Source: a virus (lineage: Duplodnaviria; Heunggongvirae; Uroviricota; Caudoviricetes). From it: a stretch of DNA of 7,246 nucleotides. Under the pieces are notes generated by a model that had not been told where the DNA came from, searched no databases, and saw nothing but the letters and a program-made list of their open reading frames with translations. Location: IMG/VR virus record IMGVR_UViG_2548876964_000020; one strand, 5' to 3'. Numbering within the stretch: position 1 is the first letter of the stretch; each line of letters begins with the position of its first letter. The position numbers were made by a program, and so were the translations under genes. Shown here piece after piece: positions 713 to 2,263 of the stretch.

Positions 713-1771
713 TCATCCGTTCTGACTGACTAAATCCTGTACTTCCCTGACCGTCTGCTCAAAACGTTCAGTCTCCAGCTCAACGCCAGTTGCACGACGC
801 CCCAGCGCCATCGCGGCTTTGACTGTCGAACCCGACCCCATGAAGAAATCTGCAACCAGGTCACCCGGACGACTGCTCGCACTGATTATCTGCTGCAGCA
901 TTTCTGCCGGTTTTTCGCACGGATGTTTCCCGGGATAGTACTGCACCGGTTTATGCGTCCACACATCCGTGTACGGCACCTGCGCCGTCACGCCAAAATA
1001 CCGCCGCAGATGTTTATATTCACTCTGCAGTTCCGCATACTGCCGGTTCAGTGAAGTATACGTCTCCAGCAGCTGGTGGTGGGGCTTTTCCAGTTCACCG
1101 CGCTGATGCTTCTCTTCTGCCACCCGGGCAAACAGCGCCTGTAATTTCAGATAATCGCTTTCGTTCGGCAGCAGCCACTGACCGGCACTGAACCAGTGCG
1201 ACACCATGTTTTTCTTTCCTGTGGCATCTGCAATCTGTTTTGCCGTTATCCCCAGGACAGCGCGCGCATCACGAAAGTAAGAAATCAGCGGAGCCATCAC
1301 ATGCTGTTTCAGTGCCCTGCCCTTCGCCTCATACCCGGCATCTTTCGGACGATACGGCCCCTGATAATGTTCCGCGAACAGAATGCGCTCTGTGGCGGGG
1401 AAATACGCCCTCAGGCTTTCCTTGTTGCACCCGTTCCAGCGTCCGGACGGCTTCGCCCAGATAATATGGTTCAGCACACTGAAGCGTTCACGCATCATGA
1501 TTTCAATGTCAGATGCCAGGCGATGGCCACAGAACAGGTAAAGACTTCCGGCAGGTTTCAGCACCCGCCAGAACTGCGCCAGACACTGGTCCAGCCACTT
1601 CAGGTAATCATCGTCGCCCTTCCACTGGTTATCCCAGCCCTCAGGCTTCACTTTAAAGTACGGCGGGTCCGTGACTATCAGGTCAACAGAATTTTCGGGT
1701 AACGACCGGATAAATTCCAGGCAGTCAGCGTTGATCAACTCACAACTGGATATTTTTACAGTGTTAAACAT
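713..1771 (-). CDS. DNA methyltransferase, beta-class amino-MTase (N6-adenine or N4-cytosine); orphan, no adjacent restriction endonuclease
   Basis: 352-aa ORF. Motif IV DLIVTDPPY near the N-terminus, HPCEKP, and motif I DLVADFFMGSGST near the C-terminus (beta-class order). ATG at 1771-1769. Confidence 0.85.
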   Translation of the reverse strand: MFNTVKISSCELINADCLEFIRSLPENSVDLIVTDPPYFKVKPEGWDNQWKGDDDYLKWLDQCLAQFWRVLKPAGSLYLFCGHRLASDIEIMMRERFSVLNHIIWAKPSGRWNGCNKESLRAYFPATERILFAEHYQGPYRPKDAGYEAKGRALKQHVMAPLISYFRDARAVLGITAKQIADATGKKNMVSHWFSAGQWLLPNESDYLKLQALFARVAEEKHQRGELEKPHHQLLETYTSLNRQYAELQSEYKHLRRYFGVTAQVPYTDVWTHKPVQYYPGKHPCEKPAEMLQQIISASSRPGDLVADFFMGSGSTVKAAMALGRRATGVELETERFEQTVREVQDLVSQNG

Positions 1772-1904
1772 GGATCATTAAGCCTGTCTCTGATAGGCTC
1801 ATTCTGCTTTTGCGCAAAGCAGTGGGCCTGAGGTTTGCTTGTGATCCAGACGCATGAGCAGATGGCTGGTGAGTGCCCCTAACACCCACCAGCCGCCCAT
1901 TTAC

Positions 1905-1935
1905 CACAAATAAAAAAGCCTTCAGGACTGAAGGC
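1905..1935 (-). terminator. Rho-independent terminator (minus strand) between the small wHTH gene and the methyltransferase
   Basis: Stem GCCTTCA (1918-1924) / TGAAGGC (1929-1935), loop GGAC. On the minus strand it is followed by TTTTTTATTT (complement of 1905-1917). The small gene's stop codon lies inside the stem. Confidence 0.65.
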
Positions 1936-2119
1936 GTCTGTAACAACCGAACTGATAGTCTGCCAGACCCGCCATAACAAGCTGGGTCAGTATTAACTGG
2001 CAGCGTTCGCGTGAAAGGTAAGTATTCTGCGCAATCTCCCCGACTGTCGCCGGTTCGGTGACGCTTAATTCATTAAACACTGCTCTGGCGGTTTCTGTCA
2101 TATCCTGCTGTTTTAGCAT
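1922..2119 (-). CDS. Small winged-helix/HTH DNA-binding protein, 65 aa (FaeA/PapI-like by motif, tentative)
   Basis: ORF-track 77-aa frame. Preferred start is ATG at 2119-2117 (MLKQQD...); an alternative ATG at 2101 has an AGGA SD. HTH-like segment PATVGEIAQNTYLSRERCQLILTQLVMAGL. Bracketed by two minus-strand terminators. Confidence 0.45.
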   Translation of the reverse strand: MLKQQDMTETARAVFNELSVTEPATVGEIAQNTYLSRERCQLILTQLVMAGLADYQFGCYRRLQS

Positions 2120-2241
2120 GCTTTTTTCCCTTTTCCGGTTAACGTGACACACCAATAACTCTTGTCAAAAAAGCCAGCAAGCTGAAAGACCGGTATTCAC
2201 CGCCACCAGCGCGTTTACTGTACTGACGCGATTTCAGTCAT

Positions 2242-2263
2242 AAAAAACCCGCCAGGCGGCGGG
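2242..2263 (-). terminator. Rho-independent terminator (minus strand) about 85 bp downstream of the Q stop; candidate tR'-type site
   Basis: Stem CCCGCC (2248-2253) / GGCGGG (2258-2263), loop AGGC. On the minus strand it is followed by TTTTTTATGA (complement of A6 at 2242-2247). Confidence 0.65.

Follow-up and report, generated by a model that had tools for sequence, protein, structure and literature searches.

An M.EcoGII-family adenine methyltransferase preceded by a small winged-helix gene and a conserved structured leader behind the late antiterminator of a lambdoid prophage

Com is the translational activator of mom, a toxic late DNA-modification gene of phage Mu. In Mu-like prophages, com homologues precede non-specific adenine methyltransferases, and in com-mom as in the pairings of com with Hin1523, Nma1821 and Hia5, a dedicated factor of ~60-70 amino acids (aa) and an RNA leader precede a late, host-toxic, promiscuous anti-restriction enzyme in the same transcription unit (PMC3299994). 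Here we describe a similar layout in a tailed-phage sequence, IMG/VR virus record IMGVR_UViG_2548876964_000020, the whole 7,246-nucleotide (nt) stretch of which was analysed and is called the window. On its minus strand, a gene for a 65-aa winged-helix protein, a 135-nt structured leader and a gene for a 352-aa N6-adenine methyltransferase lie downstream of the late antiterminator gene Q; the 65-aa open reading frame (ORF), the methyltransferase and the two intrinsic terminators listed in an initial annotation, made from the sequence alone, are all present there. The locus differs from com-mom in that its small protein is a winged helix with two cysteines, not a PF10122 Com zinc ribbon, and in that control would be exerted by Q antitermination, as opposed to C, Dam and OxyR in Mu. 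Moreover, Hia5-family enzymes have been reported to be Dam-related (PMC3299994) and are not close relatives of M.EcoGII.

The closest described relatives of the window enzyme are M.EcoGII and M.EcoGI of Escherichia coli O104:H4 C227-11 prophages. M.EcoGII acts on adenine irrespective of context, methylating both DNA and RNA (Murray et al. 2018, PMC5778455). It is silent in the lysogen and harmful to the cell when expressed, and Murray et al. proposed that it is turned on at prophage lytic growth to defeat restriction (PMC5778455). The window enzyme, itself known by its sequence, resembles these enzymes in its ~93% identity, the beta-class order of its motifs, its prophage location and the lack of an endonuclease. 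It differs in what is described around it: PMC5778455 makes no mention of a small gene upstream, and the Discussion of that paper contains neither a leader nor a position behind Q and the terminator tR'.

Two further systems share parts of the arrangement. The 208-aa MT-A70 methyltransferase M.EcoPA8orf6770P of Stx2a phages co-purifies 1:1 with the winged-helix protein PNB-2, which is encoded just 5' of it and gives it a preference for 16S rRNA (Gong et al. 2023, PMC10810198). As in the window, a small winged-helix gene stands immediately 5' of a methyltransferase gene and a terminator lies ahead of the pair; PNB-2, however, has 143 aa and is not homologous to the small protein (hhalign probability 2.4%), and its genes belong to the early, left arm. 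The lambdoid pR'-tR' late leader (StxS, PMC7547250) also follows Q and combines a constitutive late promoter with an immediate terminator and Q-dependent read-through into cargo. In the window the Q is of another type, the predicted transcript is ~60 nt compared with 258 nt, and the assignment was made by position and sequence. We favour, with a probability of about 50%, a gate of several layers, similar to that of com/mom, which controls a promiscuous anti-restriction methylase at the head of a Q-dependent late operon.

Identity of the methyltransferase

The methyltransferase gene (713-1771, minus strand) encodes a beta-class N6-adenine methyltransferase of the M.EcoGII family. A profile hidden Markov model search matched it to PF01555 at E=8e-44 (150.7 bits, with a gathering cut-off of 26.7). 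Motif IV (TDPPYF, near residue 34) lies N-terminal to motif I (FFMGSGST, near residue 310), as in the beta class, and inspection of the sequence found the motifs intact. The enzyme matches the M.EcoGII sequence of the PMC11551740 supplement at 325 of 349 positions (93%); this copy was machine-read and contains errors, to which some mismatches may be due. Its identity to the enzyme of phage 1720a-02, named as very similar to M.EcoGII (PMC5778455), is 98%. No ORF or domain of a cognate endonuclease was found in the window or in related loci, which together with the PF01555 match bears out the initial description of an orphan beta-class amino-methyltransferase. The enzyme is a member of a family already characterised and widely annotated; no published study was found of the small protein or of its pairing with the methyltransferase. 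We regard the identity of the enzyme and its anti-restriction role as highly likely.

The initial annotation had offered two functions for the pair, a heritable methylation switch and a regulated anti-restriction function. The latter is the better of the two. By extension from its relative M.EcoGII, the window enzyme would methylate adenine non-specifically and remain silent in lysogens, and a heritable switch is unlikely for an enzyme so close to one that acts in any sequence context and is silent in lysogens (PMC5778455). Consistent with this assessment, single-molecule real-time sequencing of two O111:H- Shiga toxin-producing E. coli outbreak strains carrying M.EcoGI/II homologues shows no additional motif attributable to them (bioRxiv 10.1101/173336). 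Complete hypermethylation, being lethal, cannot encode a heritable two-state mark.

A conserved structured leader

A structured RNA leader of 135 nt (1772-1906, minus strand) abuts the methyltransferase start codon. In its fold, a long-range helix, P0 (UGGGC/GCCCA), encloses hairpins P1 and P2, and hairpins P3 and P4 follow. Between genera, nucleotide identity of the leader is 79-84% as against 70-74% for the two flanking genes, so that it is more conserved than these genes although synonymous sites are saturated. The P0-P4 fold is shared by 74 distinct leaders and has a z-score of -4.1. The 24 variants of hairpin P1 all fold, at -14 to -26 kcal/mol; the 5' arm is invariant, and the substitutions facing it are G-U/G-C or U-A/U-G exchanges. 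Base pairs were assessed by per-hairpin folding and by covariance-model (CM) alignment; the model, R1, scores the window leader at 130.7 bits. In the CM-derived alignments, which are fitted to the model and so lean towards the modelled structure, 91.8% of cells are paired among 76 sequences, with compensatory change in 22 of 36 pairs (shuffled controls, 5.7 +/- 1.3 pairs, none of 500 reaching 22; slid controls, 5-10), and 85.7% are paired among 14 divergent sequences, with compensatory change in 26 of 36 pairs (shuffled controls, 16.2 +/- 2.2) and a covariation score of 0.458 (slid controls, 0.07-0.14). The leader is thus a structured RNA more conserved than its neighbours and supported by covariation, and these features make it a probable functional RNA.

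The best support for the leader comes from distant matches outside the model-building set. The CM scored 73 bits in Hafnia phage yong2, 50 in PY54, 46 in phiKO2, 43 in Vibrio phage Valp1, 39 in VHML and in MAR, 37 in N15, 36.5 in PhiR46_1 and 21-24 in two Aeromonas phages, and each of these matches abuts the start either of a methyltransferase or of a small ORF preceding one. In N15 and VHML, P1 is wholly rewritten yet still paired. Beside the homologue, neither P2-like phiO18P nor a Methanosarcinales virus showed the leader. A search of Rfam 15 with cmscan gave no match within 1766-1906 at E<=1 when run on the whole window, and only chance-level matches when 1740-2350 was searched at E<=10. 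A 2023 survey reported four unnamed candidate RNAs 5' of phage N6-adenine methyltransferases, of which the leader may be one (PMC10690425). The proposal that the leader is the Mu com-mom operator was rejected, the best match of the model in the Mu com-mom region being 2.4 bits; the relation to com-mom is therefore one of analogy and not of homology.

At the junction with the coding sequence, P4 ends 7 nt 5' of the methyltransferase AUG, which has no canonical Shine-Dalgarno sequence. An invariant UGAUC, 4 nt 5' of this AUG, could replace it by pairing with GAUCA of 16S rRNA just 5' of the anti-Shine-Dalgarno sequence. The GATC contained in this motif (1775-1778, minus strand), also a Dam site, is invariant in all 31 aligned lambdoid-type leaders, and N15 and phiKO2 have A(G/A)CUAUG instead. 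Two other candidates in this region were rejected. An upstream ORF or leader peptide (the ATGGGCGGC frame) is 33 codons long in the window, where most loci have 7, its insertions and deletions fall in loops, and it shows no periodicity. A hairpin at 1781-1799 of the window, considered as a stem occluding the ribosome-binding site, is not conserved, other loci forming P4 in a different register.

The spacer of 150 nt might alternatively be conserved as DNA, serving as a Chi-containing recombination or boundary sequence for module exchange and for protection of rolling-circle DNA from RecBCD. The 7.2 kb of the window hold six Chi sites (GCTGGTGG), where shuffled sequences predict 0.28: 1072-1079 (plus), 1886-1893 (minus), 2203-2210 (minus), 2405-2412 (minus), 3910-3917 (plus) and 4368-4375 (minus). 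The site at 1886-1893 sits in the invariant 5' arm of P1, and four of the six are oriented with late transcription, an orientation that should stop RecBCD entering from the cos end. Furthermore, four IMG/VR contigs (L122, L160, L185 and L204) carry in place of the methyltransferase an ORF of 237 aa that is unrelated to it and has no clear match in Pfam, and the recombinant junction lies inside the leader, at about window position 1865 and ~20 nt after the P1 Chi. However, N15, phiKO2 and VHML keep the hairpins and the junction nucleotides but have no Chi there, compensatory changes that tolerate G-U pairs are a signature of RNA, and conservation spans the whole 135 nt, anchored to the start codon. 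We therefore judge conservation as DNA to be quite improbable.

The small winged-helix protein and its linkage to the methyltransferase

The small gene runs from an ATG at 2119 to a stop codon at 1922 (1922-2119, minus strand) and belongs to PHROG 331, "unknown function". In a mechanical ORF list it starts at a TTG and has 77 aa; the form annotated in RefSeq and in phage records is that of 65 aa. That it is a real gene follows from its 340 homologues across Enterobacteriaceae (>73% identity), the invariance of M1 and a dN/dS of ~0.1 where computable (dN ~0.07-0.17, synonymous sites being saturated). The family is narrow, with 86 cluster representatives among 1.84 billion. An AlphaFold2 model (mean predicted confidence, pLDDT, 88.8) shows a canonical winged helix of the order H1-b-H2-H3-wing, and Pfam returned only sub-threshold matches to generic winged-helix families (TrmB, DprA_WH, HTH_24 and MarR_2). 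A sequence search of the PDB gave only a chance match to YraP (E=0.41).

The initial annotation had likened this protein to the PapI/FaeA family and seen in the pair a co-regulator and a methyltransferase that set heritable ON/OFF states. The winged-helix fold was confirmed; family membership was not. No FaeA match appeared in Pfam even at E<=10, and an hhalign comparison with PapI, the sequence of which was verified against PDB 2HTJ, gave a probability of 1.3%. PefI, a structure of the PapI family, stands only at rank 45 of the Foldseek list (TM score 0.75), among generic winged helices, so that the fold does not discriminate PapI or FaeA. The small protein shares with PapI, FaeA and PefI a single winged-helix domain of similar size, and the invariant GATC before the methyltransferase ATG would also suit such a switch; it shows no sequence or profile relation to them, and its context and partner are others. 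All loci examined consist of Q, the small ORF, the methyltransferase, tRNA and lysis genes; none holds a fimbrial operon with an Lrp/GATC switch, and the genes stand in a late operon of a phage and not in a fimbrial switch, where Lrp and GATC sites are paired. Together with the absence of sequence specificity and with the silence in lysogens noted above, these results largely refute the heritable switch, to which we assign a very remote probability.

Linkage of the two genes is strict. The methyltransferase lies downstream in all 17 genome loci selected by the small protein, and the small ORF lies upstream in 73 of 74 viral contigs selected by the methyltransferase, while the type of the upstream Q differs among the linked loci. 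Of 21 loci, 20 have a spacer of 147-153 nt between the two genes, and a Providencia phage has one of 138 nt. In the four contigs in which the methyltransferase is replaced, the small ORF is frameshifted in two and intact in the other two.

The top Foldseek matches are N-terminal winged-helix (dimerisation) domains of methyltransferases, and IclR, SelB and Z-alpha domains are also among them. SelB winged-helix domains bind the SECIS RNA hairpin, and their presence among the best fold matches was counted in favour of a role at the RNA leader. Helix H3 (RCQLILTQLV.AGL) is invariant, as is the N-terminal MLKQ.DMTE, even in alleles that are only 41-49% identical, and the arginines flanking H3 are not conserved. 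In the window the protein is acidic (isoelectric point 5.1, net charge -1).

In the main rival to the favoured gate, the small protein would join the methyltransferase as a subunit or partner and restrict, redirect or detoxify it, for example by guiding it to phage DNA or an RNA target, the leader being an independent translational element. Such a role would accord with the strict linkage, the acidity of the protein and its invariant hydrophobic H3, the methyltransferase dimerisation domains at the top of the fold matches, and the precedent of PNB-2 co-purifying with its enzyme and shifting its preference (PMC10810198). PNB-2, however, is not a homologue, M.EcoGII by itself is highly active and non-specific (PMC5778455), and VHML and the Aeromonas phages have the enzyme without the small protein. 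Between loci whose methyltransferases are still 81-87% identical, the small protein has diverged to 41-49% identity, which ill suits a tight interface, except one made by H3 and the N-terminus. On this evidence we consider a partner subunit unlikely.

Related phages place other small genes beside homologous methyltransferases. In the phage-plasmids of the N15 type, 75-78-aa winged-helix proteins, N15 gp51 (1506-1733 of locus L101), phiKO2 gp51 (1003-1230 of L226) and PY54 ORF59 (392-625 of L230), are encoded directly 5' of the segment with the late promoter, the terminator, the leader and the methyltransferase. In N15 and phiKO2, winged-helix gp51 is followed by the annotated late promoter, a terminator, the leader, the methyltransferase, another terminator and the holin. 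N15 gp51 aligns with the small protein in hhalign (68%, E=5e-5), and these proteins are probably its distant homologues. In Aeromonas phages and Vibrio phage Valp1 the order is leader, small ORF, methyltransferase and holin. The small ORF of Aeromonas phage phiARM81ld matches PF10122 Zn_ribbon_Com above the curated cut-off (E=1.6e-6), and the ORFs between leader and methyltransferase in Valp1 and PCAh2 have a C-x2-C ... C-x2-C pattern and were judged Com-like by eye. These intervening Com-type ORFs lie at 612-880 of locus L231, 599-917 of L233 and 1699-2044 of L102, and the one in PCAh2 is unannotated. Proteins of the Com family thus appear to hold the position of the small regulator beside homologous methyltransferases in Vibrio and Aeromonas phages. 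We found no prior description of the module of small winged-helix gene, leader RNA and methyltransferase, nor of its Com-containing counterparts.

Position behind Q and proposed control

The Q-type late antiterminator gene (2346-3167, minus strand) encodes 273 aa, matches PF03589 Antiterm at E=5e-52 and carries the annotation of an antitermination protein in matching genomes. After it lies a putative late promoter pR' (2313-2340, minus strand; TTGATT, a 16-nt spacer and the extended -10 element TGgTAAATT), which was read directly from the sequence and scores under the threshold of the promoter scan. The -10 region and the CTAACGATGGG block after it are conserved only among loci with this type of Q. 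Next comes an intrinsic terminator, T1 (2241-2263, minus strand), with a stem of six G-C pairs (2263-2248) and a run of seven T. All 21 aligned loci, whatever their type of Q, have a strong terminator at this point, and the N15 and phiKO2 records annotate a late promoter and a terminator at the equivalent place. From its position, T1 is most likely the tR' of the late promoter, in which case the pair of small ORF and methyltransferase would head a Q-dependent late operon and not form an autonomous moron. In N15, mEp460, phiARM81ld and Valp1 the holin and lysis genes come after the methyltransferase. We consider it probable that the pair is gated as part of the Q-dependent late operon.

A second intrinsic terminator, T2 (1908-1935, minus strand; stem 1935-1918 and a T-run), overlaps the stop codon of the small ORF. 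Its hairpin is kept across loci with changes in both arms, and its U-tract, strong in the window, is weaker in other genera. Terminator-like sites number 16 in the window, compared with 7.9 +/- 3.0 in shuffles. No promoter-like site was found by the sigma-70 scan between T1 and the methyltransferase, a region that includes 2241-2119 and the leader. The initial reading of the pair as a moron is doubtful for this reason and because T1 lies where tR' is expected; the downstream terminator that it had listed is present.

The arrangement also bears on the possibility that the small protein is a DNA-binding transcription factor, acting on a site near its own gene or elsewhere in phage or host, and that a terminator-bracketed moron expressed in the lysogen merely travels with the methyltransferase. 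A candidate site exists. A conserved non-coding block (2144-2181, minus strand), CTTGCTGG-N9-(C/A)(C/A)AGAGTTAT..GTGTCAC in the cross-genus alignment and CTTGCTGG-N9-CCAGAGTTATCTGTATGTCAC in the window, lies 25-60 nt 5' of the small-ORF ATG in all genera and may be an operator or an element of the 5' untranslated region. It contains a partial dyad, CTGG-N9-CCAG, and the winged-helix fold, the sub-threshold TrmB, MarR and HTH_24 matches, the bracketing of the small ORF by two terminators and its intactness in two of the four replacement contigs point the same way. On the other hand, the window's copy of the block shows no clean palindrome, the scan detected no sigma-70-like promoter, the net charge of the protein is negative, and the small ORF is frameshifted in the other two replacement contigs. 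The constant spacing of 150 nt to the methyltransferase argues for a functional unit, and an independent transcription factor is, in our estimate, improbable. The block itself gave no sigma-70 match in the scan, and by hand only 3 of 6 positions per hexamer fit, without the -7 T; an RNA hairpin within it was rejected because the alignment shows no consistent covariation.

The window is a segment of a lambdoid prophage, 99.9% identical to E. coli O111:H8 chromosomes. Upstream of Q lie, on the same strand, the genes for RusA (3164-3538) and a DUF968 protein (3551-4600). Downstream of the methyltransferase is a degenerate tRNA remnant (607-666, minus strand; Rfam tRNA, 37 bits), which RefSeq annotates as a 71-nt tRNA-Met and which ARAGORN did not detect in the window; an intrinsic terminator follows it (555-582, minus strand). 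In Stx2 phages this slot holds two or three intact tRNAs and then stx2AB, so that the window resembles a relative of that slot without stx. The initial annotation had placed the pair between Q and the lysis cassette. The pair does follow Q directly, and the cassette lies outside the window, ~3 kb past its position 1 in the 99.9%-identical O111 chromosomes, where the tRNA remnant, small RNA (sRNA) genes and a DUF6645 gene precede it.

Several further elements were observed. The sRNA STnc100 (329-521, minus strand; 144.5 bits) lies downstream of the methyltransferase and the tRNA remnant, tail to tail with the anti-GcvB sRNA AgvB (267-328, plus strand; 96.5 bits, with a weaker overlapping AsxR match). 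A ParD/ParE-type toxin-antitoxin pair (4953-5578, plus strand) is encoded on the opposite strand within the early/nin region of the prophage. A transposase fragment of the IS3 family (IS1203; 6688-7203, minus strand) truncates the early region and adjoins a DUF1627 pseudogene in matching genomes, and the prophage is therefore probably defective.

In the favoured multi-layer gate, pR' would yield a short RNA that stops at tR' (2263-2241), and Q-modified RNA polymerase alone would pass both terminators into the small ORF, the leader, the methyltransferase and the late genes downstream. The methyltransferase would then be produced only in lytic growth, and non-specific adenine hypermethylation of replicating and progeny phage DNA would allow escape from restriction in the next host. 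Because the enzyme is harmful to the living cell, it would be held behind several gates. The first would be tR', halting constitutive pR' transcripts; the second, the terminator after the small ORF (1935-1908); and the third, the structured leader abutting a start codon without a canonical Shine-Dalgarno sequence, which would set translation of the methyltransferase or the fate of the RNA. The small winged-helix protein may be a dedicated accessory factor that tunes the methyltransferase via the leader, in the role that Com has for mom; that it acts through the leader is a tentative suggestion.

Several points weigh against this reading. The identities of the genes, the fold, the linkage, the conserved RNA structure and the place in the genome are established; pR', its dependence on Q, read-through at T2, the regulatory part played by the leader and, most of all, the target of the small protein are inferred. 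P4 leaves the AUG uncovered, so that a simple unmasking of the com/mom type is not evident. M.EcoGII alone is fully active in vitro (PMC5778455), and the small protein is thus not needed for catalysis. The leader is present in VHML without an adjacent small ORF, and in N15 the winged-helix gene lies across the promoter; the leader therefore cannot strictly depend on the small protein. The acidity of that protein and its variable arginines are atypical of a nucleic-acid-binding regulator, and a protein partner would fit equally well. The errors in the machine-read M.EcoGII sequence and the lean of the CM alignments towards the modelled structure count on the same side.

A more far-reaching proposal is that the leader is an undescribed class of cis-regulatory RNA, protein-binding or ligand-sensing, dedicated to methyltransferases of the M.EcoGII family that occur in temperate Enterobacterales, Vibrio and Aeromonas phages, and that the small protein is its trans-acting partner, a winged-helix analogue of Mu Com, or else a hidden subunit that changes the native action of M.EcoGII. 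We put this forward as speculative and somewhat doubtful. M.EcoGII is a standard reagent for adenine-methylation footprinting, and in the literature found its native role is just that of an unexpressed prophage gene; if either the novel RNA or the hidden subunit were real, an enzyme in wide use for chromatin footprinting would have, in its native setting, an overlooked layer of control. Stx2 phages carry this module immediately upstream of the tRNAs and stx2, so that changes in read-through or RNA fate could affect toxin transcripts. The leader motif provides a testable RNA element common to lambdoid, N15-like and Vibrio/Aeromonas phages, and a winged helix in place of the Com zinc ribbon suggests a convergent layout for the control of promiscuous DNA-modification enzymes. 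The locus suggests how phages may carry a dangerous enzyme safely, as the first cargo behind Q and tR', with a second terminator, a folded leader and a dedicated small protein.

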